64,000 bases of DNA from an uncultured Eubacteriales bacterium. Its GTDB lineage: Bacteria; Bacillota; Clostridia; Christensenellales; CAG-917. The translations under genes and the position numbers were made by a program. The notes below the pieces were generated by a model that made no database searches, was not told the DNA's origin, and worked only from the letters and a program-made list of their open reading frames with translations. Shown here one piece after another: positions 1 to 52,037 of the stretch (the first letter of the stretch is position 1; each line of letters starts with the position of its first letter). The stretch is from positions 17,879 through 81,878 of the forward strand of contig URIX01000002.1 in the NCBI GenBank assembly GCA_900547975.1. Direction: 5' to 3'.

Positions 1-32
1 GCCGGCTTGATTTTATCGAGTTTTTCAAACAT
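1..32 (-). CDS. N-terminal tip of an unidentified CDS that runs off the window
   Basis: ATG at 32-30 on the minus strand with AAGGAG 7 nt upstream. Only MFEKLDKIKPA is visible. Confidence 0.3.
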   Translation of the reverse strand, partial: MFEKLDKIKP

Positions 33-217
33 AATACATCTCCTTCATAGAATCCGACAGCGCCGCGTTACCGTCCGCCGCGCCGTCTTTATATCTATCG
101 ATTTACTGCATAACATTATCCGTCCAAACAGTATATTTGTCAAGTTATGAGCCGTATCGCTCGCAACTTTTAATGAAGCAAATCGAACGAAATCAAATAA
201 GATATTTTCAAAACGAG

Positions 218-245
218 TTGATTTTTGCATAATATGTGCTATAAT
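218..245 (+). promoter_or_regulatory. candidate sigma-A promoter of ssrA
   Basis: TTGATT (218-223), 16-nt spacer, extended -10 TGcTATAAT (237-245), about 35 nt upstream of the mature tmRNA 5' end. Confidence 0.45.
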
Positions 246-280
246 CATTGCACCAAAGCGGTTTTTGATTGTCCGCTTTC

Positions 281-645
281 GGGGGTGTTCTGGATTCGAC
301 ATTCGGTCTGATGCGGGATAAGCACGTCGTAGGCTCGGCTACGTTAAAACGGAACGTTAAAATTAAACGCAAAAAACAATCAAAAGAGCTCCTCTATGGA
401 GTTCGCTCTTGCTGCATAATTTAAGTCGGCACGTCGACACGGGGTTTTCTGTTCCCTCGTCAATCGGCGTCAGAAAAACAGACAACGCAATCTGATTTCT
501 CGGTAGGGTTGTTGTCAATACGAGATTATCGAGGCAAGGTTTGTAGGTGAACCGAACTTAGAAAAATTTTAATCACCAACTAAACGTGTAGAAAGTGCCG
601 AGTACGGTCGGGTGGACCGGGGTTCAAATCCCCGCACTTCCACCA
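281..645 (+). ncRNA. ssrA: tmRNA (transfer-messenger RNA)
   Basis: 5' GGGGGTGTTCTGGATTCGAC and 3' GGACCGGGGTTCAAATCCCCGCACTTCCACCA form the tRNA-like domain. Internal tag frame 369-419 (GCA AAA ... GCT GCA TAA) encodes AKNNQKSSSMEFALAA. Confidence 0.93.
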
Positions 646-652
646 GAAATGC

Positions 653-680
653 AAAAACCGCGTATCTAACGCGGTTTTTT
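653..680 (+). terminator. rho-independent terminator of ssrA, repeated at 823-851 and 995-1022
   Basis: AAAAACCGCG-tatctaa-CGCGGTTTTTT hairpin followed by a T-run. Confidence 0.8.
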
Positions 681-698
681 CATTTAGTGGGAATGTGT

Positions 699-751
699 GG
701 GGATTATGCGATTTTGGCAAAATCGCATCACGGCAATGCCGTGTGAACCCC
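699..751 (+). other. split inverted T-arm module, unit 1
   Basis: GGGGATT, then hairpin ATGCGATTTT/ggc/AAAATCGCAT (706-728), then hairpin CACGGC/aat/GCCGTG (729-743), then TGAACCCC. With the hairpins removed the flanks rejoin to the exact reverse complement of the ssrA T-arm (619-633). Confidence 0.7.
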
Positions 752-869
752 TTTCGGCTGCACGCGATTGACCTATGGTAGCAATCGCTGTTGGGCAAAT
801 CCCGTACTTCCACCAGAAATGCAAAAAACCGCGTATCTAACGCGGTTTTTTCATTTGGTAGGAATGTGT

Positions 870-922
870 GGGGATTATGCGATTTTGGCAAAATCGCATC
901 ACGGCAATGCCGTGTGAACCCC
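870..922 (+). other. split inverted T-arm module, unit 2
   Basis: Same sequence and layout as 699-751, one repeat period downstream. Confidence 0.7.
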
Positions 923-1041
923 TCTCGGCTGCACGCGATTGACCTTTGGTAGCAATCGCTGTTGGACAAAACCCCGCACTTCCACCAGAAATGCAAAAAC
1001 CGAGTATCTAACGCGGTTTTTTCATTTAGTGGGAATGTGTG

Positions 1042-1088
1042 CGGGGATTGCACGATTTCATCGTGCCGTTGCGATGCAACCTGAACCG
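1042..1088 (+). other. split inverted T-arm module, unit 3 (diverged)
   Basis: CGGGGATT, then GCACGAT/ttc/ATCGTGC (1050-1066), then GTTGC/gat/GCAAC (1068-1080), then CTGAACCG. The layout matches units 1-2 but both stems have different sequences. Confidence 0.6.
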
Positions 1089-1113
1089 TGTTTGGCCAGA
1101 TTTTCTAATAAGT

Positions 1114-1141
1114 AAAAACCGCATTAGATGTGCGGTTTTTT
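1114..1141. terminator. bidirectional terminator closing the ssrA repeat array and sdaA
   Basis: AAAAACCGCA-ttagatg-TGCGGTTTTTT, A-run on one side and T-run on the other, between convergent transcription units. Confidence 0.7.
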
Positions 1142-1161
1142 GCTCGAAAACAGGTTGTTTG

Positions 1162-2397
1162 TTATTTCTTTTTGTAATGCTTTGCGTGGCGCAGACGGGA
1201 ATGTCCGTAACTCTTGGCAAGTCCGCCGCCGGATGTTTCGCGATAGCGTACGTTGATGTCTTTGCCCGTTTGGTACATTGTTTCGACAACCGCGTCAAAG
1301 GATATTTGACGGGAAGTGGTGAGAAAACTCGCAAGCGACACGGCGTTTATCGCACGCATTGCCGCAACTGCGTTTCTCTCTATACACGGGATTTGCACAA
1401 GTCCCGCAACGGGGTCGCAAGTCAAGCCCAGATGATGTTCCATTGCAACTTCTGCGGAATACTCGATTTGGTCGAAGTCCATTCCGAAAAGTTCCGCAAG
1501 AGCCGCAGCCGCCATAGAACACGCCGTTCCGCATTCCGCTTGGCAACCGCATTCCGCGCCGCTTATCGATGCGTTCGTTTTGACGATATTGCCGATTATT
1601 CCCGCCGTGCAGAGTGCGTTTATAATCGTATCGTCCGAGTATTTGTGCACGTCTTGCTCGTATTTGAGGACGGCGGGAAGAATACCGCACGCGCCGCAGG
1701 TGGGGGCGGTTGCGATAACTTCGCCCGAAGCGTTCTGCTCGCTGACGGCAAAAGCGTATGCGCAAACGAGGCGATTTTCCTTCGTTTGCGGCGTTTCGTC
1801 TATGTGGCGTTGCTGATAAAGTATCTTTGCTCTGCGTTCGGTGTTGAGACCGCCGGGAAGCACGCCGCTCGCTTTCAAGCCTTGCTTGATTGCGTTTTTC
1901 ATGGTTTCCCAAATAGTTGCGAGATAGCCGCGAATTTGCGCGCCCTCGAAGCGTTCGACGTACTGGGGAATGCTTATTTCGTTTTCGTCGCAATACGCTC
2001 TTATTTGCTCGAACGTATGGTGGGGGTAGACTTCGGGCGGGTCTATCGAACTTTCGCCCTCGACCTCGATTGCGCCGCCGCCCACGCTGTATACGCGCCA
2101 CGAATCCGTAATCTTTCCGTTTAGGTCAATGGCGAACAAATCCATAGTATTCGGGTGGGGCAGATGTTCGTTTTCATAGTCGAAAACGACGTCTACGGGT
2201 TTCGTAAAAGTTTTTTTAAGAACGACGTCCGTGCCGTGTCCTTTTCCCGTTTTTGCCAGCGAGCCGTAGAGGATAACCTTGAACGAATACGCGCTCTTGT
2301 TGCGTTCCATAAACAGTTTTGCGGCTTTTTCGGGACCCATAGTGTGCGAACTCGACGGTCCGCGTCCGATTTTGTACAGTTCTGTCAAACTTTTCAT
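1162..2397 (-). CDS. sdaA: L-serine dehydratase, iron-sulfur dependent, single-chain form
   Basis: N-terminus MKSLTELYKIGRGPSSSHTMGP is typical of L-serine ammonia-lyase, and Cys-rich C..CGxxG segments lie in the C-terminal half. Start chosen at the ATG with AAGGA upstream; the ORF track starts at 2418 on a GTG. Confidence 0.85.
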   Translation of the reverse strand: MKSLTELYKIGRGPSSSHTMGPEKAAKLFMERNKSAYSFKVILYGSLAKTGKGHGTDVVLKKTFTKPVDVVFDYENEHLPHPNTMDLFAIDLNGKITDSWRVYSVGGGAIEVEGESSIDPPEVYPHHTFEQIRAYCDENEISIPQYVERFEGAQIRGYLATIWETMKNAIKQGLKASGVLPGGLNTERRAKILYQQRHIDETPQTKENRLVCAYAFAVSEQNASGEVIATAPTCGACGILPAVLKYEQDVHKYSDDTIINALCTAGIIGNIVKTNASISGAECGCQAECGTACSMAAAALAELFGMDFDQIEYSAEVAMEHHLGLTCDPVAGLVQIPCIERNAVAAMRAINAVSLASFLTTSRQISFDAVVETMYQTGKDINVRYRETSGGGLAKSYGHSRLRHAKHYKKK

Positions 2398-2692
2398 ATG
2401 TGATTTATCCTTGTGCACACATTATAACACAAATAAACTTCGGCGCAACGCTTTGAGAGGTATTGAAAACGAGAAAATTCAATGAAACGAGTTATATTTT
2501 TTTCGATTTTCTTTCGCAACGATTTGCCAAGCGTATAAAAAGTGTGCTAATATATCAAAGTTTTATATAGTAACACACGATTTTGCGTGCGGAAAAGCGA
2601 TTCAAAAGGCGCAAAAAACGCTCTAAAATACGCTCAAAACACGCCAAACGACGCACAATATGCGCCGAAACGTAGGAAAAAGAAGGCTCAAT

Positions 2693-4519
2693 ATGGTCAG
2701 AAACGATTTGAGAAACATCGCAATCATCGCCCACGTCGACCACGGCAAAACCACGCTCGTGGACGGTATGCTCAAACAATCGGGTACTTTCAGAGAAAAT
2801 CAACAGGTTGCAACCTGCGTTATGGACTCAGGCGACCTCGAAAGAGAAAGAGGTATCACGATTCTTGCAAAAAATACGTCAATCCACTACAACGGCACGA
2901 AAATCAACATCATCGACACACCCGGACACGCCGATTTTTCGGGTGAGGTCGAACGTGTTTTGAAGATGGTCAACGGCGTCGTGCTTTTGGTCGACGCGCA
3001 AGAAGGTCCTATGCCTCAAACGCGTTTCGTCGTCGAAAAAGCACTCGCTTTGGGACTTAAAATAATCATCGTAGTCAACAAAATCGACAAACCCGACGCA
3101 AGACTTTCCGAAGTCGGCGACGAGGTGCTCGAACTCTTGCTCGACCTCGACGCGAGCGACGAGCAACTTCAAAGCCCCATTTTGTATTGCAGCGGCAAAC
3201 AAGCCACCGCAACTCGCGATTACCACGTTCCCGGCAAAGACCTCAAACCGCTTTTCGACACCATTATCGATTATATCCCCGCACCCGAAGGCGACGAGAA
3301 CGGCGAATTGCAACTTCTCGTGTCCGCAATCGACTACAACGATTACGTCGGTCGTATCGGCATAGGCAGAATCGAAAGAGGCAAGGTGGATATGGCAAAG
3401 GAAGTCGTGGTTTGCGACTATCACAGCGGCATTTCTCCGTACAAGAGCAAAATCGTCAACCTTTTCCAAATCGAAGGACTCAAACGCGTTCCCGTCGAAA
3501 ACGCTATGGTGGGCGACATCGTTTGTTTCAGCGGTATAGAAAACATCACAATCGGCAACACCATTTGCTCGCCTGCAAAAATCGAACCCGTGCCGTTCGT
3601 CAAAATCGGCGAACCCACTATCGAAATGAATTTCTGCGTCAACGACAGTCCGTTCGCGGGCAAGGAAGGCAAGTTTGTCACATCTCGTCACTTGCGCGAA
3701 AGATTGTTCAAGGAACTCTTGAAAGACGTTTCGTTGAGAGTGTACCAAACCGAAACCCCCGATACGTTCAAGGTTTGCGGCAGAGGCGAAATGCACCTTT
3801 CCATTCTCATCGAAACTATGCGCAGAGAAGGGTATGAGTTCGGCGTAAGCACCCCGAAGGTCATCTTCAAGGACATCGACGGCGTAAAGTGCGAGCCTAT
3901 GGAACAACTCTTTATCGACGTGCCGTCCGATTGCGTCGGTTCGGTTATGGAACGTATGGGTGTAAGAAAGGGCGAACTCGTCACGATGAATCCGCAAGGC
4001 AGCCGTATCCGTATGGAATTCAAAGTGCCTGCGCGCGGATTGTTCGGATTCAAAAACGAGTTTTTGACGGACACCAAAGGCGAGGGCGTTATGAACCAAC
4101 TCTTTGCAGGCTATGCGCCCTACAAAGGACCCATTCCTCGCAGATTCACAGGCTCGCTCGTCGCATACGAAACGGGTGAAGCCGCAACTTACGGACTTTT
4201 CAACGCGCAAGAAAGAGGCATTTTGTTCATCGACCCGCAAACTCCCGTTTACGAGGGTATGGTCGTCGGCATGTCGCCCAAGAACGAGGACATTCGCGTC
4301 AACGTCTGCAAGCGTAAACACGTCACCAATATGCGTGCCGCAGGTTCCGACGAAGCACTTCGCCTCAACACGCCTCGCAAATTCAGCCTCGAAGAAGCCA
4401 TCGAGTTCCTCAACGACGACGAAATGCTCGAAGTCACCCCCAAGAATATTCGCATAAGGAAGATTATTTTGTCGGGGGCCGAACGTCTTAAACTCGCCTA
4501 CGGCGGCAAAAACGCCTGA
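2693..4519 (+). CDS. typA: translational GTPase TypA/BipA
   Basis: [20 protein letters not shown]1 motif, [15 protein letters not shown]-like domain order, ~608 aa. Confidence 0.92.
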
Positions 4520-4625
4520 TTGAGCGAATAACTGCGTCAGGCACGGCTTGCCTCAAAATCGTGTACGCTTATGTACACTGGGTTTTGATTCAAGCCGTGC
4601 ATTTCTTGTTCTTCATCTCAATCAG
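4516..4625. other. three-tier long hairpin beginning at the typA stop codon; probable terminator or 3' UTR structure
   Basis: CTGATTGAG (4516-4524) pairs with CTCAATCAG (4617-4625), GCACGGCTTG (4541-4550) with CAAGCCGTGC (4591-4600), and the tip is GTGTAC/GTACAC (4561-4578). Confidence 0.55.
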
Positions 4626-4773
4626 ACGTTTTTGCAAGTAAAAAAATAAATTTCAAAACAAATATCACCCCAAACATTCTTCTATATAAATTTTTTTAAC
4701 AATCCTATCTTTTTTTTCTAAACAACCAACTTATACTTATTGTTTAATCTATTCACTAATAAAAACATATTCA

Positions 4774-4825
4774 ATATGAAACATTTTTCATATTTTCTTG
4801 ACAATTCGCTGTTCGGTGCTATACT
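4774..4825 (+). promoter_or_regulatory. candidate promoter with an upstream palindrome for the metal-binding protein gene
   Basis: TTGACA (4798-4803), 16-nt spacer, TGcTATACT (4817-4825). Palindrome ATATGAAA-catt-TTTCATAT at 4774-4793. Confidence 0.4.
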
Positions 4826-4864
4826 TTTGGTGAAATCAAAATCTCATTTACTTCGGAGGTCGAT

Positions 4865-5125
4865 ATGAAAGAGATTACACTCAAAGTAGAAGGTATGCAA
4901 TGCGGTATGTGCGAAAGTCACGTCAACGACACGGTGCGCAAAGCGGCAAACGTCAAAAAGGTTACGTCTTCGCACGTCGAGGGCAAAACCGTCGTGATTT
5001 GCGAGGATAACGTAGACGTCGACGTCATCAAAAACGCAATTCAAAAGGACGGCTACAACGTCGGTGAAGTGGACGTCAAACCGTATGAAAAGAAAGGCTT
5101 GTTTTCGTTCTTCAAAAAGAAATAA
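4865..5125 (+). CDS. heavy-metal-associated (HMA) domain protein, CopZ-like
   Basis: GMQCGMC metal-binding motif near the N-terminus, 86 aa, GGAGG RBS. Confidence 0.75.
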   Translation: MKEITLKVEGMQCGMCESHVNDTVRKAANVKKVTSSHVEGKTVVICEDNVDVDVIKNAIQKDGYNVGEVDVKPYEKKGLFSFFKKK

Positions 5126-5162
5126 GTGTAAGAACGCCGATTTTTAATGTGCTCAAAAAGCA

Positions 5163-5189
5163 GAAACGCCACCGATTCGGTGGCGTTTC
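5163..5189. terminator. bidirectional terminator between the HMA gene and glyQS
   Basis: GAAACGCCACC-gattc-GGTGGCGTTTC between convergent genes. Confidence 0.75.
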
Positions 5190-5210
5190 GTATTGCGTTT
5201 TATACTTCTA

Positions 5211-6596
5211 TTAATATTTGAACTGTTCGGTGAAGTAGTCAACGAGGCTGTCGATGGGCAAGCGAACTTGCGCCATAGTGTCGCGTTCGCGCACGGTTAC
5301 GCAACCGTCTTCGAGAGTGTCGAAGTCAACGGTGACGCAGTAGGGCGTGCCGATTTCGTCTTGACGGCGGTATCTCTTGCCGATTGAAGCGGACGTGTCG
5401 TAGTCGCAGGCAAAGTGCTTGGAAAGTTCGATATAGAGTTCTTCCGCTTTCTCGTTGAGTTGTTTTTGCAAGGGAAGCACGGCAACTTTGACGGGTGCGA
5501 GCGCGTGGTGCAAGTGAAGCACGACTCTCGTGTCGTTTTCGCCGACTTGTTCTTCGTCGTATGCGTCGCAGAGAAACGCAAGGAACACGCGGTCTGCGCC
5601 GAGGGACGGCTCGACGACGTAAGGAACGTATTTTTCGTTGGTTACGGGGTCGATATAACTCAAATCCTTGCCCGACGTTTTCATATGTTGATTGAGGTCG
5701 TAGTCGGTGCGGTCCGCAACGCCCCAGAGTTCGCCCCAACCGAACGGGAATTTGTATTCGAAGTCGGTGGTCGCTTTGGAATAGAAGCAGAGTTCCTCTT
5801 TTTCGTGGTCGCGAAGTTTGAGGTTTTCGTCCTTCATACCGAGGTCGAGCAACCATTGATGGCAGAAGTTCTTCCAGTAGTTGAACCAGTCGAGGTCCGT
5901 TCCGGGTTTGCAGAAGAATTCAAGTTCCATTTGCTCGAATTCGCGGATACGGAAGATGAAGTTGCCCGGGGTGATTTCGTTGCGGAAACTCTTGCCGATT
6001 TGACCGATTCCGAACGGGATTTTCTTGCGGGTGGTGCGTTGCACGTTCTTGAAGTTTACAAATATGCCTTGCGCCGTTTCGGGACGAAGATATACGGTTG
6101 ACGTGGAATCTTCGGTGACGCCGATGAAGGTTTTGAACATAAGGTTGAATTTTCTGACGCCTGTGAAATTGCTGTTTCCGCAAACGGGGCAGGGGATTTT
6201 ATGTTCGATGATGTATTGTTCCATCTGCTCGTTTGTCCAACCGGAAATATTTTCTTCGATGCCGTGCTTTTGGTTGTATTCTTCGATGAGGTCGTCGGCG
6301 CGGTGACGAGATTTGCAAGATTTGCAGTCCATCAAGGGGTCGGAAAAACCGCCGATATGACCGCTGGCTTGCCACGTTGTCGGGTTCATAATTATTGCGC
6401 TGTCAAGTCCGACGTTGTAGGGATTTTCAACCACGAATTTCTTCCACCAAGCCTGCTTGATGTTGTTTTTGAGTTGAACGCCGAGAGGGCCGTAGTCCCA
6501 AGAGTTGGAAAGACCGCCGTAGATTTCACTTCCGGGATAGACGAATCCGCGGTTTTTTGCGAGGGCAACAAGTTTGTCCATAGTCAGTTGTGCCAT
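5211..6596 (-). CDS. glyQS: glycine--tRNA ligase, single-chain class II
   Basis: [44 protein letters not shown] lies 8 nt upstream of the ATG at 6596. Confidence 0.92.
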
Positions 6597-7733: not shown

Positions 7734-7860
7734 ATGCTCGGCAAATGACAATATATTATGTTTGATTTCTTCAATAGCATATGAAAAAATAAGTTTATAT
7801 TTAGAATTGCAGTATGAAATTCAAATCTAAGTTATAAATAATAAACAATCAAAGGTATCA

Positions 7861-7887
7861 AAAAAAGACGAACGAAGTCGTCTTTTG
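7861..7887. terminator. hairpin terminator, one of three copies of the same hairpin
   Basis: AAAAAGACGAACGAAGTCGTCTTTT. The same hairpin occurs at 9040-9066 and, inverted, at 10417-10443. Confidence 0.6.
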
Positions 7888-7997
7888 TTGTATGCAAATA
7901 CCTATTTCGATACAATTTGCGTACACCCCATAAAAAGTGCGTACACCTTGTCAAAATTTGCGTACAGTTAAACGCACCGATAAATTGGAATTTGACG

Positions 7998-8697: not shown

Positions 8698-8845
8698 TAA
8701 TGAAATCCTGCTTTGCAGGATGAAATCTTAGGTGTGCAACCTCAGATGAAATCAAATCCGCCTCAATTAACCCCGTGTTAGAGGGATTTCATCACAAGGT
8801 GATTTCATCCACGAAGTGGATTTATTCCGACGAAGGCGGATTTAG
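8698..8845. repeat. array of GATGAAATC / GATTTCATC 9-mers interleaved with mini-hairpins
   Basis: (A/G)ATGAAATC occurs 3 times (8699-8753), then GATTTCATC 2 times (8785-8810) plus degenerate GATTTAT and GATTTAG. AAATCCGCC (8753-8761) pairs with GGCGGATTT (8835-8843). Confidence 0.7.
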
Positions 8846-8847
8846 TT

Positions 8848-8889
8848 AAAAAAGACTGCAATTTTGTATCAAAATTGCAGTCTTTTTTT
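8848..8889. terminator. bidirectional terminator
   Basis: AAAAAAGACTGCAATTTT-gtatc-AAAATTGCAGTCTTTTTTT. Confidence 0.75.
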
Positions 8890-9072
8890 GGTGCGGATGA
8901 CAGGACTTGTAGCGAGAGAAACGAGCGTAATAGCGATTGTTGCGCAGTATGCGCCAATCGTGTCAGCTGCACAAGTGCAGGTTGCAAACATTGTTTGCCG
9001 ACAATTGAAAAATTGTCGCAAGTCCGTTGCCGTAACAAAAAAAAGACGAACGAAGTCGTCTTTTGTTGCGTG
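8889..9072 (-). repeat. stand-alone inverted copy of the element that follows tRNA-Leu
   Basis: Reverse complement matches 10414-10590 with only a few substitutions. It ends in CAAGTCCTGTCATCCGCACCA (8909-8889), a tRNA-Leu 3' end copy with one mismatch. Confidence 0.9.
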
Positions 9073-9184
9073 TGTACGGCAAAATCTCGTTTTTCGGGCG
9101 ATTTTCGAGAGTGTGTTGGACGATAAGTACTTTTTTGCGATTGTTATGAAGAGTGTGGTGGATGATAAGCATTGGTTGCTCTGA

Positions 9185-9652
9185 TTAATTTACAAATTCC
9201 AAAACGGTTTCATCTTCATTTATGCGGTACACAAACGGAGAATAGGCTTTTGCTATCTTTGTCCAAAGTTTTTTTGCTCCTACATTTTTCTCGTTGTATT
9301 TTATTTCCCATTTGCCATGATAGATTGATAAAATCAAATTAACTGCATCGATTGCATAATGATTTCTTCGGTAGGAAGGAAAAATCGTAAACTCTGCTAT
9401 CGTATAATCCGGATGATGTCCGATAGCGGAGTATGTATTCAACATAACAAAACCGACCATAATTTCATCATCGTAAATGAAAAAGGCTTTTCTCTCCGCA
9501 TCGGTAAAATACGCATCAAAATATTCGTAATGATAATTTCCTTGTTCGTCCATGTTGTCAGGATAGTACTTTGTCATCTCATACAAATATTTTTGATTTA
9601 TATTCCATAAAAGTTTGCGTTCTTCCGCTTTAACTTCTTGTAATCTGATCAT
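9185..9652 (-). CDS. GNAT family acetyltransferase
   Basis: 155 aa. FTIFPSYRRNHYAIDAV lies at the acetyl-CoA pocket position, and the overall length and pattern fit small GNAT proteins. Confidence 0.65.
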   Translation of the reverse strand: MIRLQEVKAEERKLLWNINQKYLYEMTKYYPDNMDEQGNYHYEYFDAYFTDAERKAFFIYDDEIMVGFVMLNTYSAIGHHPDYTIAEFTIFPSYRRNHYAIDAVNLILSIYHGKWEIKYNEKNVGAKKLWTKIAKAYSPFVYRINEDETVLEFVN

Positions 9653-9735
9653 CTTTATTCCATCGCGTTATTCAAATTTGTCTTTGGTATAATTTTAGCA
9701 TATTATGCGGTGCTTTTCAATCAAACGCATAGGTA

Positions 9736-9776
9736 TAAAAATATCGGTCTGTAAGAAAAGACTTACAGACCGATGC
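9736..9776 (-). terminator. terminator of the tRNA-Gly/tRNA-Lys unit
   Basis: ATCGGTCTGTAAG-tctttt-CTTACAGACCGAT followed by ATTTTT on the minus strand. Confidence 0.75.
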
Positions 9777-9779
9777 GTT

Positions 9780-9855
9780 TGGTGCATCCTCAGGGACTCG
9801 AACCCTGGACCCACTGATTAAGAGTCAGTTGCTCTACCAACTGAGCTAAGGATGC
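9780..9855 (-). tRNA. tRNA-Lys (anticodon CUU)
   Basis: Cloverleaf GCATCCT...AGGATGC-A-CCA, anticodon loop CT-CTT-AA, T-loop GGTTCGAGTCC. Confidence 0.93.
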
Positions 9856-9946
9856 ATATCTCGGCGACAATTACGCTTTATGCGGTCGTTGTCGCTCCCT
9901 AGATATTTTGAACGACCATTGCTGATCGTTCAATTCCGCTTGCGCG

Positions 9947-10104
9947 TGGAGCGGGAGACGGTGTGGTCGCTTTCGCGACAACCTTCGGTGCGAACCCTTG
10001 CGGGTCTGCGATTGCATCGCACTTCACTGTGTGAAGCCGAATCCCGTCAACCGATTGCTCGATTTTCAAAGATTCTTTTTCACTCACACTATCGTTGCTT
10101 CCGT
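9947..10104 (-). repeat. 158-bp insert downstream of tRNA-Gly(GCC), ending in a direct copy of the tRNA's last 15 nt
   Basis: TGGAGCGGGAGACGG at 9947-9961 repeats 10105-10119. Split inverted T-arm module at 10046-10001 (minus strand): CGGGATTCGG, CTTCAC/aca/GTGAAG, TGCGAT/gca/ATCGCA, GACCCG. Confidence 0.85.
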
Positions 10105-10179
10105 TGGAGCGGGAGACGGGATTCGGACCCGCGACTTTCACCTTGGCAAGGTGACACTCTACCACTGAGTCACTCCCGC
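10105..10179 (-). tRNA. tRNA-Gly (anticodon GCC)
   Basis: GCGGGAG...CTCCCGC-T-CCA, anticodon loop TT-GCC-AA. Confidence 0.93.
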
Positions 10180-10328
10180 AAGCACAAATTACTATATCAA
10201 ATCAATTTGCAAAAAGCAACAATTTTTTGCCATAAAGTTAAAAATATTTTATAAAATCAGCATATAACACTCTTAATTTTGTTTTTGCTTTACAGAAACC
10301 GAAATTATGCTATAATAATGATGTTTTT

Positions 10329-10413
10329 GCGGATGTGGTGAAATTGGCAGACACGCAAGATTTAGGTTCTTGTACTATATAGTGTGCAGGTTCAAGTCCT
10401 GTCATCCGTACCA
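10329..10413 (+). tRNA. tRNA-Leu (anticodon UAG), class II with long variable arm
   Basis: GCGGATG...CATCCGT-A-CCA, anticodon loop TT-TAG-GT, 85 nt. Confidence 0.92.
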
Positions 10414-10590
10414 ACAAAAGACGACTTCGTTCGTCTTTTTTTTGTTACGGCAACGGACTTGCGACAATTTTTCAATTGTCGGCAAACAATGTTTGCAACC
10501 TGCACTTGTGCAGCTGATGCGATTGGCACATACTGCGCAACAATCGCTATTACGCTCGTTTCTCTCGCTACAAGTCCAGTCATCCGTACC
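10414..10590 (+). repeat. 177-bp element downstream of tRNA-Leu, ending in a copy of the tRNA 3' end
   Basis: Terminator AAAAGACGACTTCGTTCGTCTTTTTTTT. Module GGACTT, CGACAATT/tttc/AATTGTCG, GCAAAC/aat/GTTTGC, AACCTG (10455-10502). CAAGTCCAGTCATCCGTACC (10571-10590) matches tRNA 10393-10412 at 19 of 20 positions. Confidence 0.88.
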
Positions 10591-10750
10591 CAAAAAGCCT
10601 CTAAGCAGTAGATGTTTAGCGGCTTTTTCATTTTTCGCTAAGAAAAACTGTTTATCTTTTGCCACAAAACAATAAAATCATTGATATTTTGAGCAAAAAA
10701 TTCCAAGAAAATAAAAAGCCAAACCGCCACCGGTGCGGATTGGTAAAGTG

Positions 10751-10924
10751 TGGTGGAGATAAGGGGATTCGTAGGAAGCGACCTGGACGCTTCCGTAATA
10801 GCGTCAGCGTCAGCCCGTAGTGGTTCGCACGGTGAAACCGTGGTGCGATTTTTGAAAAAATCGCGCAATCCACTTATTCCCCACAAAAAAAACAAGCCGA
10901 ACAGAGTTCGACTTGTGTTCTTTT
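10751..10924 (-). repeat. 174-bp insert downstream of tRNA-Ala, ending in a perfect 21-nt copy of the tRNA 3' end
   Basis: TGGTGGAGATAAGGGGATTCG at 10751-10771 equals 10925-10945. Terminator at about 10886-10920. Split inverted T-arm module at 10874-10819 (minus strand): AGTGGATT, two hairpins, CGAACCACT. Confidence 0.88.
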
Positions 10925-11000
10925 TGGTGGAGATAAGGGGATTCGAACCCCTGGCCTTCGCATTGCGAACGCGACGCTCTACCAACTGAGCCATATCCCC
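10925..11000 (-). tRNA. tRNA-Ala (anticodon CGC)
   Basis: GGGGATA...TATCTCC-A-CCA with the G3:U70 alanine identity pair, anticodon loop TT-CGC-AA. Confidence 0.92.
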
Positions 11001-11183
11001 ACATTCGCTTTTAGAAACATTCGATTTGTTCCTTGCTGTGTTATTATATCACATTATTTGATTTTGACAATTAATTTTTAACCTTTTTTTTGATATATTC
11101 TAAAAGGATTCGTGTGCTAACACATATAATACGGCTTCAAATGGATTTTGTTTGAATTTTTTTGGGAAAAATATAAAAAAGTA

Positions 11184-11240
11184 TTGACAATAGAATCCCG
11201 ATAGTGTAAATTATAACTAACGAGAATCATTATCGATAAT
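11184..11240 (+). promoter_or_regulatory. candidate promoter plus Fur/PerR-type box of the regulator-rubrerythrin operon
   Basis: TTGACA (11184-11189), 17-nt spacer, TAAATT (11207-11212). GAGAATCATTATCGATAAT (11222-11240) contains AATCATTATC, the half-site of the Fur-family 19-bp consensus. Confidence 0.45.
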
Positions 11241-11276
11241 AAATACAAATTAAATAACGATTCGAAGAAGGGTAAA

Positions 11277-11663
11277 GTGACAAAGAGAAACACGATACAA
11301 AAAGAAGTGGTTGCGAGGATTGTGAAAGAGGCTTGCAATCATCCGACGGCGGATATGGTCCTTGTCGAGGCGAAGAAAGAGTTGCCGAATCTCAGTTTAG
11401 GCACGGTGTATCGCATTCTCAAAGATATGGCAAACGAGGGCGAGATAAGGGAAGTGGCATGCAAAGACGCGCCGTCGAGATTCGATAAAACCACTATGAA
11501 CCACGGGCATTTCCGGTGCGTGAAGTGCGGAAAAGTCGAAGATGTATTCTTCAATCTTGACAAAATCGACAAGAGTATCGTGGATTTCGGCGACAATCTC
11601 GTGCTTGAAAGCCAACTGTTTTTCAGAGGAATATGCAAGGATTGCAGAGAAAAATCGGAGTAA
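11277..11663 (+). CDS. Fur family transcriptional regulator (PerR-like)
   Basis: Winged-helix LGTVYRIL, HGHFRCVKCGKV and C-terminal CKDC zinc motifs. 128 aa, GTG start. Confidence 0.8.
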   Translation: MTKRNTIQKEVVARIVKEACNHPTADMVLVEAKKELPNLSLGTVYRILKDMANEGEIREVACKDAPSRFDKTTMNHGHFRCVKCGKVEDVFFNLDKIDKSIVDFGDNLVLESQLFFRGICKDCREKSE

Positions 11664-26023: not shown

Positions 26024-26072
26024 AGTTGTAGCCTTTAGCGACAAAAAACCACCACTTGAAGTGGTGAAATAG

Positions 26073-26261
26073 AGGTTGCGCACAAAATTTGTGCGTAAGC
26101 AGATGTATAGATAAATAGGGTGGCGTTCTAATTGCACAAAATCCGCAATATGAGATTTTTATAAATTTAAAGAATTTATAGGCGTAGTTTTGTAGCAAAA
26201 AATTCTCGAAGAAAAATAATACGAACCCATTATCTGAGTTCGTATTATTGTCATTTGGTGA
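26073..26261. repeat. 190-bp dispersed direct repeat, copy 1
   Basis: AGGTTGCGCACAAAATTTGTGCGTAAGCAGATGTATAGAT...AATAATACGAAC-ccattatctga-GTTCGTATTATTGTCATTTGGTGA recurs at 47734-47923, by eye about 12 mismatches and 1-2 single-base indels. Confidence 0.9.
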
Positions 26262-26335
26262 GCAAAATAATGCATCAATTGATTGAGTTTACATTAGTTT
26301 GTTTAGCGGTTTAGATTACAAGAACAGCACAAAAA

Positions 26336-47670: not shown

Positions 47671-47733
47671 GGTTATTTTTTTATAATCTAATTGAATCGC
47701 TAACGGAATATGGCGCTTCAAGGAGTATAAAAA

Positions 47734-47923
47734 AGGTTGCGCACAAGATTTGTGCGTAAGCAGATGTATAGATAAAAAGGGTGGCGTTTTAATTGCACAA
47801 AATCAGCAATATGAGTTTTTTATAAATTCAAAGAATTTATAGGCATAGTTTAGTAGCAAAAAATTCTCGAAGAAAAAATAATACGAACCCATTATCTGAG
47901 TTCGTATCATTGTCATTTGGTGA
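47734..47923. repeat. 190-bp dispersed direct repeat, copy 2
   Basis: Same orientation and near-identical to 26073-26261, including the 12-bp-stem hairpin AATAATACGAAC/GTTCGTAT(C/T)ATT. Confidence 0.9.
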
Positions 47924-47983
47924 CCGAATCGACACTTTATCTATACAAAAAGATTATATAAAGTGACAAATATGTTGTCAAAT

Positions 47984-49590: not shown

Positions 49591-49609
49591 AATCAAAATA
49601 GTATATATT

Positions 49610-49787
49610 GCCCTCGATTTTTACAGATACCGGCGAAACAAACAGATATTATAAATGCGCCGGCAAAAAGAAATATCACAATGGTTGCACGAAAAGTCAA
49701 GTGCGCAAAGAGTATCTCGAAGATATTGTCGTCAACGCAATCATAGATGAGTTGAATCGCCTGGGAGCAATAGAGTACTACCGATGA
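49610..49787 (+). pseudogene. large serine recombinase C-terminal zinc-ribbon fragment
   Basis: The in-frame translation reads YYKCAGKKKYHNGCTKSQVRKEYLEDIVVNAIIDELNRL. It has no start and is fused directly to the integrase remnant. Confidence 0.6.
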
Positions 49788-50237
49788 TATACACCTTGAC
49801 GAAAGATACATTGTAATAAACAAGCAAATGCAAAACGGTGAAGTTGTCCCGCCCAAAACCGATAGCGGAAATAGAAACGTACCGATTATCGATGTTTTGT
49901 ATCCGTATTTGAAAGACATAGACTTTTCAAAGCACGAAAGATTGTTCCCGATAAAAGAACACGCATTGCGTGTGTATTTCAAAACGCATTGAAAGCAAGT
50001 GGCTTGGACGGTATGGGTTTTACAATTCATTGCTTGCGCCATACCTACGCAACGAGATGTGCTGAAAATAATGTAAATCGTGTTGTTGTTCAAAAATGGG
50101 TTGGACATTCAACGGCGGATATGACAGAAAACGTTTATACGCACATCAATAATGATTTCGAGAAAGACGAAATCGAAAAATTTAATAAGGGGGTAAACGA
50201 TACATATAATCAAGAAAAAAAGACTATTCGGAAATAA
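49786..50237 (+). pseudogene. tyrosine recombinase/integrase catalytic domain, N-terminally truncated and frameshifted
   Basis: PPKTDSGNRNVPII...LFPIKEHALRVYFKT, stop at about 49990, then in another frame GFTIHCLRHTYATRCAENNVNRVVVQKWVGHSTADMTENVYTHI (the R..HxxR..Y catalytic signature). Confidence 0.8.
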
Positions 50238-50275
50238 AAAAATTAGACTATATACTGAGTATATAGTCTAAAAAA
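50238..50275 (-). terminator. terminator of the five-tRNA operon
   Basis: TTAGACTATATAC-tcag-GTATATAGTCTAA followed by TTTTTTT on the minus strand. Confidence 0.75.
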
Positions 50276-50351
50276 TGGTGACCCACCGGAGATTCGAACT
50301 CCGGACCATCGCATTAAAAGTGCGGTGCTCTACCGGCTGAGCTAGTGAGTC
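50276..50351 (-). tRNA. tRNA-Lys (anticodon UUU)
   Basis: GACTCAC...GTGGGTC-A-CCA, anticodon loop CT-TTT-AA. Confidence 0.92.
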
Positions 50352-50353
50352 AT

Positions 50354-50428
50354 TGGCAGGGGTAGCTGGATTTGAACCAACGAATGCCAGAATCAAAATC
50401 TGGTGCCTTACCGCTTGGCGATACCCCT
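50354..50428 (-). tRNA. tRNA-Gln (anticodon UUG)
   Basis: AGGGGTA...TACCCCT-G-CCA, anticodon loop TT-TTG-AT. Confidence 0.9.
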
Positions 50429-50536
50429 ACAACGCAGTCTATCTTATCACCAAAACAAAGTTTTTGCAACAAATATACTGCACTTTTTTGCCGAATGTAA
50501 ATAATTTTTGTTTCGGCTGTGACAGATTATCAAAAC

Positions 50537-51073
50537 GTTTGATTTTCTGCCCGTTCGAATCCGATGAAGTTATCATTGAACTCGAACTTATATCGACTCT
50601 ATTTAGAGTGATGTTTCAAAAGTGGGGTGAATAGTGGGATTCGCGCCGTTTGACCTATGCCGAGCGACTCGCGCTACACAGGCACGCATCTTTATGCGTT
50701 TCCGTACGACTTTTCGAAGGTCTGCACTATCACGCCGGGGCAGTCAAACAATTCACAGGATTGTTTGATTTTCTGCCCGTTCGAATCCGATGAAGTTATC
50801 ATTGAACTCGAACTTATATCGACTCTATTTAGAGTGATGTTTCAAAAGTGGGGTGAATAGTGGGATTCGCGCCGTTTGACCTATGCCGAGCGACTCGCGC
50901 TACACAGGCACGCATCTTTATGCGTTTCCGTACGACTTTTCGAAGGTCTGCACTATCACGCCGGGGCAGTCAAACAATTCACAGGATTGTTTGATTTTCT
51001 GCCCGTTCGAATCCAATGAAGTTATCATCGAACTCAAACTATATTGACTCTTTTCAGAGTAATTTATCAAAAG
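50537..51073 (-). repeat. tandem array (about 2.4 units of 225-226 bp) downstream of tRNA-His, each unit ending in the tRNA's last 21 nt
   Basis: TGGGGTGAATAGTGGGATTCG at 50623-50643 and 50849-50869 equals tRNA-His 51074-51094. Units 1-2 are near identical; the unit next to the tRNA is slightly diverged. Confidence 0.9.
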
Positions 51074-51151
51074 TGGGGTGAATAGTGGGATTCGAACCCA
51101 CGACCTCCAGGGCCACAACCTGGCACGCTAACCAACTGCGCTATATCCACC
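51074..51151 (-). tRNA. tRNA-His (anticodon GUG) with encoded G-1
   Basis: G-GTGGATA...TATTCAC-C-CCA, anticodon loop TT-GTG-GC. Confidence 0.92.
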
Positions 51152-51155
51152 ATAA

Positions 51156-51232
51156 TGGCGAGCCTGAAGAGATTCGAACTCCCGACACACGGCTTAGAAG
51201 GCCGTTGCTCTATCCTGCTGAGCTACAGGCTC
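51156..51232 (-). tRNA. tRNA-Arg (anticodon UCU)
   Basis: GAGCCTG...CAGGCTC-G-CCA, anticodon loop CT-TCT-AA. Confidence 0.92.
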
Positions 51233-51267
51233 ATTGCATTAGACGCTCAAAGATTGTTTGAGTTCTT

Positions 51268-51412
51268 GTAATGGAGCGGGTATTTGGAATGCCGCACTTT
51301 TGCATGCAACATATTCCACTAAACCGCAAGCCGTTTTGGACAGGTTTTGTACGATGCGGCAATCTCGCTTTTCGCTCGATGCGGACCGTCCAATTCCCGT
51401 CAAAGACGGTAA
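51268..51412 (-). repeat. 141-bp insert downstream of tRNA-Gly(UCC), ending in a 14-nt copy spanning the tRNA 3' terminus
   Basis: GTAATGGAGCGGGT at 51268-51281 repeats 51409-51422. On the minus strand GACGGGAATTGGAC just after the tRNA resembles the inverted T-arm GATGGGAATCGGAC. Confidence 0.7.
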
Positions 51413-51486
51413 TGGAGCGGGTGATGGGAATCGGACCCACGCAATCAGCTTGGAAGGCTGACATTCTACCATTAAACTACACCCGC
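51413..51486 (-). tRNA. tRNA-Gly (anticodon UCC)
   Basis: GCGGGTG...CACCCGC-T-CCA, anticodon loop CT-TCC-AA. Confidence 0.92.
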
Positions 51487-51572
51487 ACGGACTCAAATCG
51501 CACTTTTTTAGAGCAATCTATAATTCAATGCTTGACAATATTACCACATCGGCGTATTTATGTCAACAAAAT

Positions 51573-52037
51573 TTAGATTAGATTTACGATTTTGACCGTA
51601 AATTTTCCGTCGTGAACGACGGCGTAGGCGTATGACGGCGCGCCCGAAAGCGGCGAACATATCGAGCCGGGACATACGAACGTAATTCCTGTGCTTTCGT
51701 CGATTTGCGCAAAGTGCGTATGCCCGTAAAAAACGAGTGTGCAACCGAGTTCGCGCGCTCTCAAATCGAGTTCCAAAAGACCGCGCTTGACGTGGTATTT
51801 ATCGCCGTGAGTGAGTAAAATGCGCACGCCGTCTGTTTCGACGACTTCTTCGTCGCAAAACTCGTATCGGTCGCAGTTGCCCTTTACGCCGTGAAAGCCT
51901 TTGTGGCACATCAAATCGCCGAGAGAGCCTAATCCGTCGCCGAGGAAGAAAACGTATCTGCTTTCGTTTGCGACGTCCGTAAGGCGGCTTGGAAGCGGCA
52001 TATTGTGGCTGTCCGAAAATGCGACGATAGTGTTCAT
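51573..52037 (-). CDS. YfcE/MJ0936-family metallophosphoesterase
   Basis: AFSDSHN, FLGDG, GNCD, LTHGD, GHTH metal-ligand blocks. 154 aa. Confidence 0.82.
   Translation of the reverse strand: MNTIVAFSDSHNMPLPSRLTDVANESRYVFFLGDGLGSLGDLMCHKGFHGVKGNCDRYEFCDEEVVETDGVRILLTHGDKYHVKRGLLELDLRARELGCTLVFYGHTHFAQIDESTGITFVCPGSICSPLSGAPSYAYAVVHDGKFTVKIVNLI

Follow-up and report, generated by a model that had tools for sequence, protein, structure and literature searches.

Short non-coding units behind tmRNA and tRNA genes of an uncultured gut Clostridia bacterium look like miniature insertion elements of the T-loop

The window, that is, the whole stretch of 64,000 nucleotides analysed here, carries near its beginning a tmRNA gene (ssrA), which is preceded by a promoter-like site at 218-245 and followed by a tandem array of three units (Table 1). 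Each unit begins with a copy (D) of the 3' end of the gene, the first copy being the end of the gene itself, and continues with a terminator, antisense segments (I3 and I5) and hairpins. The CCA ends lie at 645, 815 and 987, so the periods of 170 and 172 given in the preliminary description of this DNA are correct, and Tandem Repeats Finder reports 2.4 copies of a period of 171 with 93% matches at 625-1041. D2 differs from D1 by one deletion and one substitution and D3 by one substitution; the 3'-end 21-mer gave no match in 100 shuffles, so its chance recurrence is not expected. Units 1 and 2 had been called near identical and are 96% identical, and unit 3, described as diverged with the hairpin layout retained, has hairpins of another sequence with compensated changes in the layout of the first two. 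It stops after the second hairpin, and both the tail and a further D are absent. A terminator follows every 3'-end copy as had been noticed, although the middle one is placed at 824-851 and not at 823-851. The fourth, related terminator (A') was also found again. It lies next to the serine-dehydratase gene in strains with other arrays too, and for this reason it is most likely the terminator that ssrA had ancestrally. The automated terminator scan missed the A-type hairpins, since their A/T extensions use up the T-run, and they were seen in computed folds. There are no ORFs inside the units except for the overlap with the 157-aa frame at 580-1053, which lies on the minus strand, matches no Pfam family and, in line with the earlier suspicion, is not supported as a gene. 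Spurious ORF calls arise from these units.

Table 1. Features of the tmRNA array and of the units behind tRNA genes in the window (D, 3'-end copy; I3 and I5, antisense segments; H1 to H3, hairpins).
Feature	Position	Strand	Parts	Remarks
tmRNA gene (ssrA)	281-645	+		ARAGORN; Rfam RF00023, 152.6 bits
D1	625-645	+		first 3'-end copy; final 21 nt of the tmRNA gene, T-loop C56 to CCA
Unit 1	625-795	+	D1 625-645; terminator A 653-680; I3 689-705; H1 706-728; H2 729-743; I5 744-751; tail with H3 764-788	covariance model match 695-762, 72.5 bits
Unit 2	796-966	+	D2 796-815 (decayed); terminator A 824-851; I3 860-876; H1 877-899; H2 900-914; I5 915-922; H3 935-959	covariance model match 866-933, 71.9 bits
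Unit 3	967-1113	+	D3 967-987; terminator A 995-1022; I3 1031-1049 (includes exact antisense GTGCGGGGATT); b-type H1 1050-1066; b-type H2 1067-1081; decayed I5 1082-1089	older, truncated; covariance model match 1039-1101, 45.5 bits
Terminator A'	1114-1141	+		related to terminator A
Serine-dehydratase gene	1162-2397	-		convergent; ATG start at 2397; faced by terminator A'
Second Leu unit	8889-9070	-		inverted, about 95% alike; only a decayed tRNA-Leu 3'-end remnant upstream
Unit behind tRNA-Gly(gcc)	9947-10104	-	I3 10037-10048 (exact 12-nt antisense); two hairpins; I5 10000-10006 (exact 7 nt); 3'-end copy 9947-9961	analogous; missed by the family models
Unit behind tRNA-Leu(tag)	10414-10591	+	Leu 3'-end copy 10572-10591 at its end	homologous; gene 10329-10413
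Unit behind tRNA-Ala(cgc)	10751-10924	-	terminator; I3 10867-10884; H1 10843-10866; H2 10828-10842; I5 10820-10827; tail; Ala 3'-end copy 10751-10770	homologous; covariance model, 68.1 bits; gene 10925-11000
Tandem array behind tRNA-His(gtg)	50537-51094	-	3'-end copies 51074-51094 (in the gene), 50849-50869 and 50623-50643	separate unit family; period 225-226
Insert behind tRNA-Gly(tcc)	51268-51412	-	antisense T-loop copy 51388-51398; 3'-end copy 51268-51281	single, about 141 nt

The tmRNA array is no assembly artefact. Near-identical units close to the k-mer length in a metagenome-type assembly would be prone to repeat expansion or mis-joining of short reads, and collapse or expansion had been named as a danger from the beginning. 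However, the three-unit array was recovered in an independent assembly (L003), where it is identical except for one SNP, and nine other assemblies of the same species have different arrays, each of which is internally consistent. Coherent variants occur in more than 25 other assemblies, one of them a long-read chromosome (the MAG chromosome CP091723.1, locus L023, in which a unit is followed by a second D). An assembly error thus has next to no chance of being the explanation.

The expected copy-number polymorphism was found among strains of the species, which are defined here by an identical serine dehydratase. Their arrays have two to four D copies and several unit types of 164-318 nt, and the first unit differs in its terminator (A or B), its hairpin set (a or b) and its tail (X or Y). 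With its head-to-tail, near-identical units and its polymorphic copy number the array has the features of a plain tandem repeat, and the close likeness of units 1 and 2 and the complete identity of the two tRNA-His(gtg) units (100%) would suit an ordinary minisatellite (VNTR) that arose in one lineage by slippage or unequal crossover. The repeat boundary in the T-loop would then be a coincidence, but it recurs at six separate genes of the window; moreover, different unit types hold the first position in different strains, and homologous units are also seen behind other tRNA genes and in further species. We therefore regard a mere minisatellite as very improbable: slippage and crossover are valid as the mechanism of copy-number change, but do not account for the origin of the units.

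The direction of the change is seen in 16 species-level genomes that have the same tmRNA 3' end. One of them (L035) has no unit at the tmRNA gene, and in four others (L029, L030, L031 and L034) nothing but terminator A and the flanking gene comes after the most distal D. This distal D is decayed in L029, L031 and L034; the array of L020 also ends in a decayed D, but there a B-type terminator follows. Two or more D copies are present in 11 of the 16 genomes, and the first D is intact while decay is seen in the distal and inner copies. D travels with the units: in L093 one sequence, GCACTTCC, is shared by the gene and the inner copies, whereas the most distal D reads GCATCTCC, which is the tmRNA type of another species. 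The ancestral state in the related species is a tmRNA gene with one terminator, as unit-less relatives display it, and therefore the units can be read as T-loop insertions. A direct repeat of the 3' part of the gene, starting at the T-loop crossover, flanks the inserts at the tmRNA and at five tRNA genes; the inserted DNA provides a working 3' end, and the original, moved to the far end, decays there. Consequently, these sequence comparisons indicate that units insert at the T-loop, bring a new 3' end and displace the old one downstream, and the duplicated segment does run from the start of the T-loop to CCA, as had been supposed.

Units are present at six of the ten tRNA and tmRNA genes in the window, namely at tmRNA and five tRNA genes. 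The covariance model finds six copies in the window, with no match at the Gly and His units, whose layout is analogous to that of the tmRNA-type units. Model searches also bore out the expectation that related units occur elsewhere in the genome, since those at tRNA-Ala and tRNA-Leu are homologous to the units of the tmRNA array, and nhmmer counts 114 unit copies in all the DNA analysed (the window and related loci). Furthermore, when metagenomes were scanned with a tail motif, units came to light behind tRNA-Ala(cgc), tRNA-Ala(ggc), tRNA-Arg(acg) and tmRNA, at distances of 88-108 nt. The population is polymorphic for an inversion between the two inverted Leu units.

One scaffold is common to the units at tmRNA, tRNA-Ala and tRNA-Leu and, in relatives, at tRNA-Arg. 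It consists of a terminator, an antisense copy of the T-arm which is split by two covarying hairpins (H1 and H2) at the insertion point, a conserved tail (CGGGCTGAC ... GCTATTACG ... CTAC) and the 3'-end copy. I3 is antisense to the region from position 57 to about 70, and I5 to that from about 47 to 56/57. In H1 and H2 93.7% of the cells are paired and double changes are found in 11 of 13 pairs; these values were attained in none of 500 shuffles, and slid controls gave 12-47%. Such covariation speaks for selection acting on a folded strand rather than for decaying DNA. The antisense segments match their local target specifically. Ungapped scoring of I3 against the target classes was weak owing to indels, so duplex energies were used instead: I3 gave -17.0 kcal/mol with its own class against -11.6 with the other classes, I5 gave -15.5 kcal/mol with its own class, and the I5 of the Leu units gave -15.8 kcal/mol against -8.4 or weaker. 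In label permutations the observed value was attained 0 times in 5000 in each test, for I3 and for I5. Many I3 segments are imperfect when compared with their own target. In the predicted single-strand fold I3 and D form a closing stem, from whose junction H1 and H2 protrude (z = -10.2 and z = -6.0). As to which strand folds, the G:T versus A:C mismatches disagree with the fold energies of the top and bottom strands.

Each unit might instead be a small structured RNA gene, with I3 at its start, the following CCA at its end and termination at the terminator that comes next. The I3:D helix of 12-19 bp with its 3' (N)CCA overhang would be a minihelix-like mimic of the acceptor-T arm of the upstream tRNA or tmRNA, and such an RNA could be a decoy, a processing substrate or a regulator. 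It is true that the 5' and 3' ends meet in the predicted fold, with TTCCACCA or ACCA left as a single strand, that H1 and H2 covary, that a terminator follows every D and that, on inspection, the type-A I3 (GGGAATG...) would retain a G3:U70-like pair. However, no sigma-70-like promoter was found within the units, where the gap from the preceding terminator to I3 is only 5-15 nt, and Rfam 15 searched over 1-3000, 8700-11300 and 50100-51600 returned only the tmRNA and tRNAs at threshold. In addition, type-B units pair only 12 nt with D and leave an 8-nt tail, the inner D copies decay, and an RNA gene would leave both the insertion polarity and the T-loop start of D unexplained. This possibility is accordingly considered improbable.

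The units are att-flanked and carry no recombination genes. Neither a recombinase ORF downstream of the arrays (10 species loci) nor an integrase or transposase beside them (10 species loci and L073) was found; the neighbours are only housekeeping genes, an LRR protein, a lipoprotein and a methylase/ATPase/WYL island. No Y1 transposase was seen in the related loci examined. Neither the tmRNA 3' 20-mer nor the tail motif had an exact match in the viral contigs scanned, blastn of the units against phage and plasmid records gave no match, and no cognate autonomous element was found in about 0.85 Mb of related loci, the viral contigs or the phage and plasmid records. Behind tRNA-Lys(ttt) in the window there are pseudogene fragments of an integrase and a serine recombinase, and larger cargo (an LRR protein gene, a lipoprotein gene and the methylase/ATPase/WYL island) sits at the same junctions.

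The preliminary description likened the duplication to that made by a tyrosine integrase at a T-loop att site, and it mentioned neither the antisense T-arm copy with its two hairpins nor the homologous units at other tRNA genes. Its T-loop-to-CCA repeat and the insertion itself stand, but there is no integrase by any array, and because homologous units with matching antisense segments occur at several tRNAs, a single tyrosine integrase with a single att site is insufficient. A broader version is that the units are relics of integrase islands or prophages at T-loop att sites, made by a tyrosine integrase of the "sublocation II" kind or by a serine recombinase as in Dehalococcoides, which were deleted down to their att-proximal ends and then amplified by unequal crossover; the scaffold would be the conserved attP region of one element family whose integrases diversified onto different tRNAs. 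[quoted passage not shown] Such relics, however, should have random end points, whereas units of 135-230 nt with the same ordered modules are seen at at least seven different targets in many species; no array adjoins an integrase, and the hairpin covariation suggests that the folded strand is selected. Moreover, we know of no attP site for which an antisense core copy split by covarying hairpins has been described. Island relics are thus an unlikely source of the units.

Several other known types of DNA were compared and rejected. The unit ends (CAAAAAAGACAAG... and ...GCGTTTGCTAC) are not inverted repeats as in a MITE; I3 forms an inverted repeat with D, but lies within the unit, and the duplication of 15-21 bp ends at CCA. 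Casposon-like or CRISPR-like staggered integration does not agree with the lack of terminal inverted repeats and with the foreign-type D in L093, nor tRNA-primed reverse transcription with the type-B I3, which falls short of the CCA end. An integron cassette array is contradicted by the T-loop sequence (GTTCAAA/GTTCGAA), which does not fit GTTRRRY, and by the lack of intI nearby. There is no Rfam match to a hammerhead or other ribozyme, and no promoter formed by circularisation is evident by inspection at the junction of tail and D. An IS110 bridge-RNA module was rejected because there is no ORF, no promoter was found and both antisense segments pair with the same (top) strand.

With their observed insertion polarity, polymorphism, shared scaffold at different tRNAs, hairpin covariation and target-specific complementarity, the units have the appearance of miniature site-specific insertion elements that belong to a family not described before. 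More precisely, we think it somewhat probable that they are non-autonomous T-loop insertion elements which are moved in trans and recognized as a folded strand. Non-coding units of about 135-320 bp would enter tmRNA and tRNA T-loops between positions 56 and 57. The first component of a unit would be its own T-loop-to-CCA copy (D) with a terminator directly after it, so the target gene would remain intact while the old 3' end is pushed downstream and decays there. The second would be the antisense T-arm copy, in which H1 and H2 part I3 and I5 exactly at the insertion point, and the third the conserved tail. New units would enter at the live gene and the arrays would therefore grow at the gene-proximal end, whereas unequal crossover between units would change the copy number and shuffle modules. 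The movement, now or recently, would be due to a recombinase encoded elsewhere, and this enzyme would recognize the folded single strand with I3 paired to D and I5 to the 5' half of the target's T-arm, a structural mimic of the T-arm or a guide for it.

Some points tell against this proposal. Neither a recombinase, transposase or other ORF tied to an array nor a free, phage-borne or plasmid-borne copy turned up in the loci and records searched. The insertion is read from comparisons, and homologous recombination with foreign alleles together with unequal crossover could yield the strain differences. Retargeting to a new tRNA would need a coordinated change of D, I3 and I5. Because I3 is imperfect and inner D copies are decaying, the units in the window may be fossils, and because some arrays end in a truncated unit (unit 3 in the window, and also Arg, Leu and His), secondary deletions are required.

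A stronger form of the proposal, put forward only tentatively as a possibility, is that the units represent a new class of nucleic-acid-guided mobile element, whose antisense segments pair with the displaced non-template strand and position the putative recombinase. The pairing would take place on either side of position 56/57 at highly transcribed tRNA and tmRNA genes; the choice of target would be set by base pairing and could be re-set for any tRNA, and the 3'-end copy of the element would keep the target gene alive.

tRNA and tmRNA genes are classic landing sites of islands and prophages, and to our knowledge all described insertions there rely on an integrase borne by the element. In this one human-gut Clostridia genome a compact non-coding module of about 170 bp is found again and again at the same T-loop position of many tRNA genes. 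If mobile, the units would be smaller than any other site-specific insertion element known, and they would suggest a mode of recognition, by folded-strand mimicry or guiding, that could be reprogrammed in the manner of bridge RNAs. Should they instead be fossils, it still holds that an essential RNA gene receives its terminator, and sometimes its 3' end, from them, that they form hypervariable stretches which are of use in typing strains of gut Christensenellales-like bacteria, and that they drive rearrangements such as the polymorphic inversion between the Leu units.

Among known systems, the ssrA genomic islands of Dehalococcoides, which have the serine recombinase DsiB, stack in tandem downstream of ssrA and vary from strain to strain as the units do (PMC3146451). 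Units and T-loop islands have in common a direct repeat of about 20 bp from the T-loop to the 3' end, by which the element restores the gene. However, T-loop islands are kb-sized and coding, with their own integrase module by attL, while the units are 135-320 bp without an ORF and have a shared hairpin scaffold, an antisense target copy and many target tRNAs in one genome. CIMEs of streptococcal ICEs are bounded by att sites, lack recombination genes, are thought to be mobilised in trans and form tandem accretions. This concept has also been invoked for ssrA islands (PMC3146451). The units are likewise att-bounded and free of recombination genes. CIMEs, in contrast, are kilobase-long deletion derivatives of a known ICE and have att sites in common with an identifiable autonomous partner, whereas the units have a conserved compact architecture and no partner was found in the loci and records searched.

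The units also resemble the bridge RNA of IS110, a structured non-coding RNA of about 170-180 nt, in size and in having segments that are complementary to both flanks of the recombination point, with which the specificity of the bridge RNA changes (PMC11208160). Its left guide pairs with the bottom strand and its right guide with the top strand, and the system has a donor loop, a CT core, no long duplication, a promoter upon circularisation and an adjacent DEDD recombinase gene (PMC11208160). In the units, on the other hand, the top strand is the one to which both segments are antisense, and neither an ORF nor a promoter was found. IS200/IS605 and REP/REPIN-RAYT systems have no terminal inverted repeats but hairpins in single strands, with a short segment by the hairpin foot that pairs with the target or the end, and short non-autonomous derivatives of them exist; the bottom strand of the unit tail is REP-like, that is, GTAG and a hairpin. 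Their guides are only 4-5 nt, they do not copy the 3' end of a gene, and we know of no targeting of tRNA T-loops by them. Lastly, in CTXphi attP(+) and integron attC two inverted segments pair within a single strand to form a recombination-competent duplex, structure is conserved rather than sequence, and tandem arrays arise at one chromosomal site. CTXphi uses XerCD at dif and integrons IntI at attI with GTTRRRY cores, and both carry genes, whereas the units carry nothing and their predicted duplex mimics the T-arm of a tRNA.

In the window, the 3′ end of the tmRNA gene is repeated in tandem: the segment from the T-loop to the CCA is found three times, where the chance expectation for its recurrence is zero, and one and the same intrinsic-terminator hairpin stands behind each copy. 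Tandem Repeats Finder placed the array at 625-1041 (period 171 nt, 2.4 copies, 93% matches). The preliminary description had reported such a threefold array, with near-identical units 1 and 2, a diverged unit 3 that kept the hairpin layout, a related fourth terminator and an artefactual 157-aa ORF, and this observation is confirmed: its coordinates and periods proved correct when repeats, 3′-end copies and terminators were re-located, unit 2 is 96% identical to unit 1, unit 3 has different hairpins in the same arrangement, a hairpin was found at the fourth site, and the ORF (580-1053, minus strand) matches no Pfam family. The feature extends further and is more unusual than in that account, from which the antisense, split T-arm present in each unit was absent.

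Features of the tmRNA and tRNA-His arrays and their surroundings
Feature	Position	Strand	Remarks
Promoter-like site upstream of tmRNA	218-245		promoter scan
tmRNA gene (ssrA)	281-645	+	ARAGORN, tag AKNNQKSSSMEFALAA; Rfam RF00023, 152.6 bits
T-loop-to-CCA segment in the tmRNA gene	625-645	+	CAAATCCCCGCACTTCCACCA
Second 3′-end copy of tmRNA	796-815	+	one deletion and one substitution against 625-645
Third 3′-end copy of tmRNA	967-987	+	one substitution against 625-645
Intrinsic-terminator hairpin	653-680, 824-851, 995-1022	+	same hairpin after each 3′-end copy
Fourth hairpin	1114-1141	+	related to the array terminators
L-serine dehydratase gene	1162-2397	-	flanks the array
Tandem array behind tRNA-His	51094-50537	-	starts in the T-loop; period 225-226

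In each of these hairpin-rich units the terminator is followed by I3, a segment antisense to the 3′ part of the T-arm, which reads GTG(C/T)GGGGATT(T), the reverse complement of AAATCCCCGCAC, and which in units with terminator A is lengthened to GGGAATGTGTGGGGATT, so that its antisense match takes in most of the acceptor strand. Then come the hairpins H1 and H2, the segment I5 (TGAACCCC, the reverse complement of GGGGTTCA, the 5′ half of the T-arm), a tail and the next 3′-end copy (D). A unit thus contains a complete antisense T-arm split by H1-H2 at position 56/57, and the split point is the start point of the direct repeat. Folded as a single strand, 619-815 is predicted to reach -61.5 kcal/mol (z = -10.2), T-arm and acceptor strand pairing with I3/I5 and terminator, H1 and H2 forming branches; a lone unit with terminator B and tail Y is predicted to be closed by a 12-bp I3:D stem (z = -6.0). 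Among 26 diverse units H1 and H2 covary strongly, with 93.7% of cells paired, changes on both sides in 11 of 13 pairs, none of 500 shuffles as high and shifted controls at 12-47%. Another reading of this folding is that the units may be RNA genes, the modelled I3:D helix having a 3′ NCCA overhang; searches within the units gave no ORF, no sigma-70-like promoter and no matching Rfam family.

The same design is found at other genes. Six of the ten tRNA/tmRNA genes in the window (tmRNA, Gly-gcc, Leu-tag, Ala-cgc, His-gtg and Gly-tcc) were found by a systematic check to have their own T-loop-to-CCA copy 135-226 nt downstream, and the same scan gave an antisense T-arm copy in five of these six; that of the Leu unit was recognised by sequence reading and backed by duplex tests. 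Two of the four unit-less genes, Arg-tct and Gln-ttg, have another tRNA a few bases downstream. The tRNA-His array contains the segment three times, two of its units being 100% identical, and relatives have 1, 2 or 3 copies. The search for related units elsewhere, which the preliminary description had proposed, gave units at Ala and Leu that are homologous to the tmRNA units (H1, H2, CGGGCTGAC, GCTATTACG and ...CTAC), whereas their I3, I5 and D fit the local tRNA. A covariance model of I3-H1-H2-I5 recovered three tmRNA copies, one Ala copy and two Leu copies in the window, six in all, with no further significant match; the layout of the Gly and His units is the same, without detectable homology. 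With nhmmer, 114 unit copies were found in 0.85 Mb of collected loci, and a metagenome scan found the tail motif at 71 loci. In 23 of these, all human-gut contigs, the match is preceded at a distance of 88-108 nt by a gene for tRNA-Ala(cgc), tRNA-Ala(ggc), tRNA-Arg(acg) or tmRNA. Matches in soil and other samples were rejected as chance matches in coding DNA.

Target specificity was examined by duplex energies, the 24 nt that precede H1 being paired with positions 57-73 from each of eight target classes. For nearly all classes, I3 pairs best with the class to which its unit belongs (mean -17.0 versus -11.6 kcal/mol), a fit reached by none of 5000 label permutations, and among Ala isoacceptors it tracks the acceptor differences (TTAT/ATAA, TTGG/CCAA, TTGT/ACAA). 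Moreover, I5 suits the 5′ T-arm half of its local target (for Leu units, -15.8 versus -8.4 or weaker; 0/5000 permutations), and in the tRNA-Gly(gcc) unit stretches of 12 and 7 nt are exactly antisense. I3 is imperfect in many units, so pairing is either mismatch-tolerant or decaying.

Several further observations concern the surroundings of these genes. Inverted Leu units, 8889-9070 (-) and 10414-10591 (+), flank a 1.3-kb segment with a GNAT gene, tRNA-Lys, tRNA-Gly and tRNA-Leu, which in locus L111 has the opposite orientation to that in the window and in L107-L109; the Leu units thus mediate a population-level inversion. A solo Leu-unit terminator, CAACAAAAGACGACTTCGTTCGTCTTTTTTT, lies at 7860-7890 (-), downstream of a GNAT gene, as a direct repeat with the copy at 9038-9068. 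A series of ATGAAATC-type hairpins, located between the second Leu unit and a GNAT gene, contains sub-threshold matches to Rfam Gut-1 RNA (8700-8848; 31.7 and 29.6 bits, gathering score 50). Just 3′ of tRNA-Lys(ttt), which has no mini-unit, two pseudogene fragments, one from a serine recombinase (Zn_ribbon_recom, 49608-49787, +) and one from the C-terminus of a tyrosine integrase (PF00589, 49989-50237, +), represent a decayed classical island. In locus L073, a defence-like island (429-5138; C-5 DNA methylase, HATPase_c_3 protein, WYL regulator) meets the left end of an Ala unit exactly at the would-be tRNA CCA, with a remnant of another tRNA 3′ end 44 nt upstream. Intergenic direct repeats of about 215 nt (26055-26266 and 47716-47928; 91-95% identical, 21.6 kb apart) have a terminal hairpin AATAATACGAAC...GTTCGTATTATT, a type also found after distal 3′-end copies in Arg arrays and in the tmRNA array of locus L093.

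The tmRNA array is not an assembly artefact. An identical serine dehydratase protein is encoded on ten contigs from human-gut assemblies; one has the three-unit array of the window with a single SNP, and comparison with the others, a check which had also been suggested, shows polymorphic copy number, with 2-4 copies of the tmRNA 3′ end and units of 164-197, 290 or 318 nt. These units are composed of interchangeable modules (terminator A/B, hairpin pair a/b, tail X, Y or long-Y), and their shuffling has its breakpoints in two conserved segments, I3 and I5; copy-number change among near-identical units is ordinary unequal crossover. The gene-proximal unit differs among strains, so the sequence directly 3′ of the tmRNA CCA varies within one species. 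In addition, six of the ten strains (L001, L005-L008, L010) have a 3.7-kb gene for a 1146-aa LRR_5/Flg_new surface protein between the last 3′-end copy and the dehydratase-side terminator; this indel, absent from the window, begins immediately after ...GCACTTCCA of the last copy and stops at the probable ancestral terminator.

With each species represented by a single genome, a scan for the tmRNA 3′ 20-mer gave 16 genomes, all MAGs labelled Clostridia, Christensenella sp. or Firmicutes CAG:238, and 11 of them have at least two 3′-end copies, spaced by 164-196 nt or by 322 nt. L035 has no unit, its tmRNA being followed by an A-like terminator and unrelated DNA. The arrays of L029, L031 and L034 end in a decayed copy (e.g., CAAATCCCGCACTTCACCGG, AAATCCCACAC, AAAGCCCGCAC), beyond which lie only terminator A and the flanking gene; in L030 the arrangement is the same, with an intact most distal copy. 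Therefore, the ancestral state is tmRNA plus terminator. Each unit entered between T-loop positions 56 and 57, bringing a new 57-76 segment and its own terminator and displacing the older end downstream. The T-loop insertion logic, which the preliminary description had correctly drawn from integration at tRNA 3′ halves, is supported for the tmRNA array by the ancestral state and the decayed distal copies. In the four-copy array of L093 (oriented, 4842-5415), the gene and inner copies read GCACTTCC and the most distal copy GCATCTCC, the type found in the tmRNA of a different species (L086), both being compatible with the 5′ strand GGGGGUG via G-U pairs; this foreign type suggests that the 3′-end copy travels with the unit, although it may alternatively be a fossil of older host sequence.

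Taken together, these comparisons show a family of compact non-coding insertions that have specialised on T-loops, both in tmRNA and in several tRNAs; they replace the 3′ end and terminator of the gene and accumulate gene-proximally. The main rival is that the units are reduced relics of integrase-borne elements; simple decay is opposed by their uniform architecture and size, their many targets and the covariation. No recombinase was found adjoining the arrays in the flanking loci examined, and neither viral contigs nor phage or plasmid records gave a match to the units. As specialised insertions, the units would be moved in trans, now or formerly, by a putative recombinase recognising a folded strand, in which I3:D and I5:target would rebuild the T-arm duplex around the H1/H2 junction. 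Both I3 and I5 have their complement in the tRNA gene's non-template strand, which is exposed in highly transcribed genes.

A literature search of limited reach found no published description of such units. In Dehalococcoides, tandem ssrA islands are kb-sized, with a 20-bp repeat, a mid-T-loop junction and the serine recombinase DsiB (PMC3146451). The proposed fold may act as a structural mimic, like the folded strands of CTXphi attP and integron attC, or alternatively as a guide, as in IS200/IS605 and IS110, whose bridge RNAs were retrieved as a literature comparison (PMC11208160). That the units represent a new, nucleic-acid-guided kind of element has an appreciable probability, though one below even odds, and they are best filed as a variant of site-specific insertion at tRNA/tmRNA genes.
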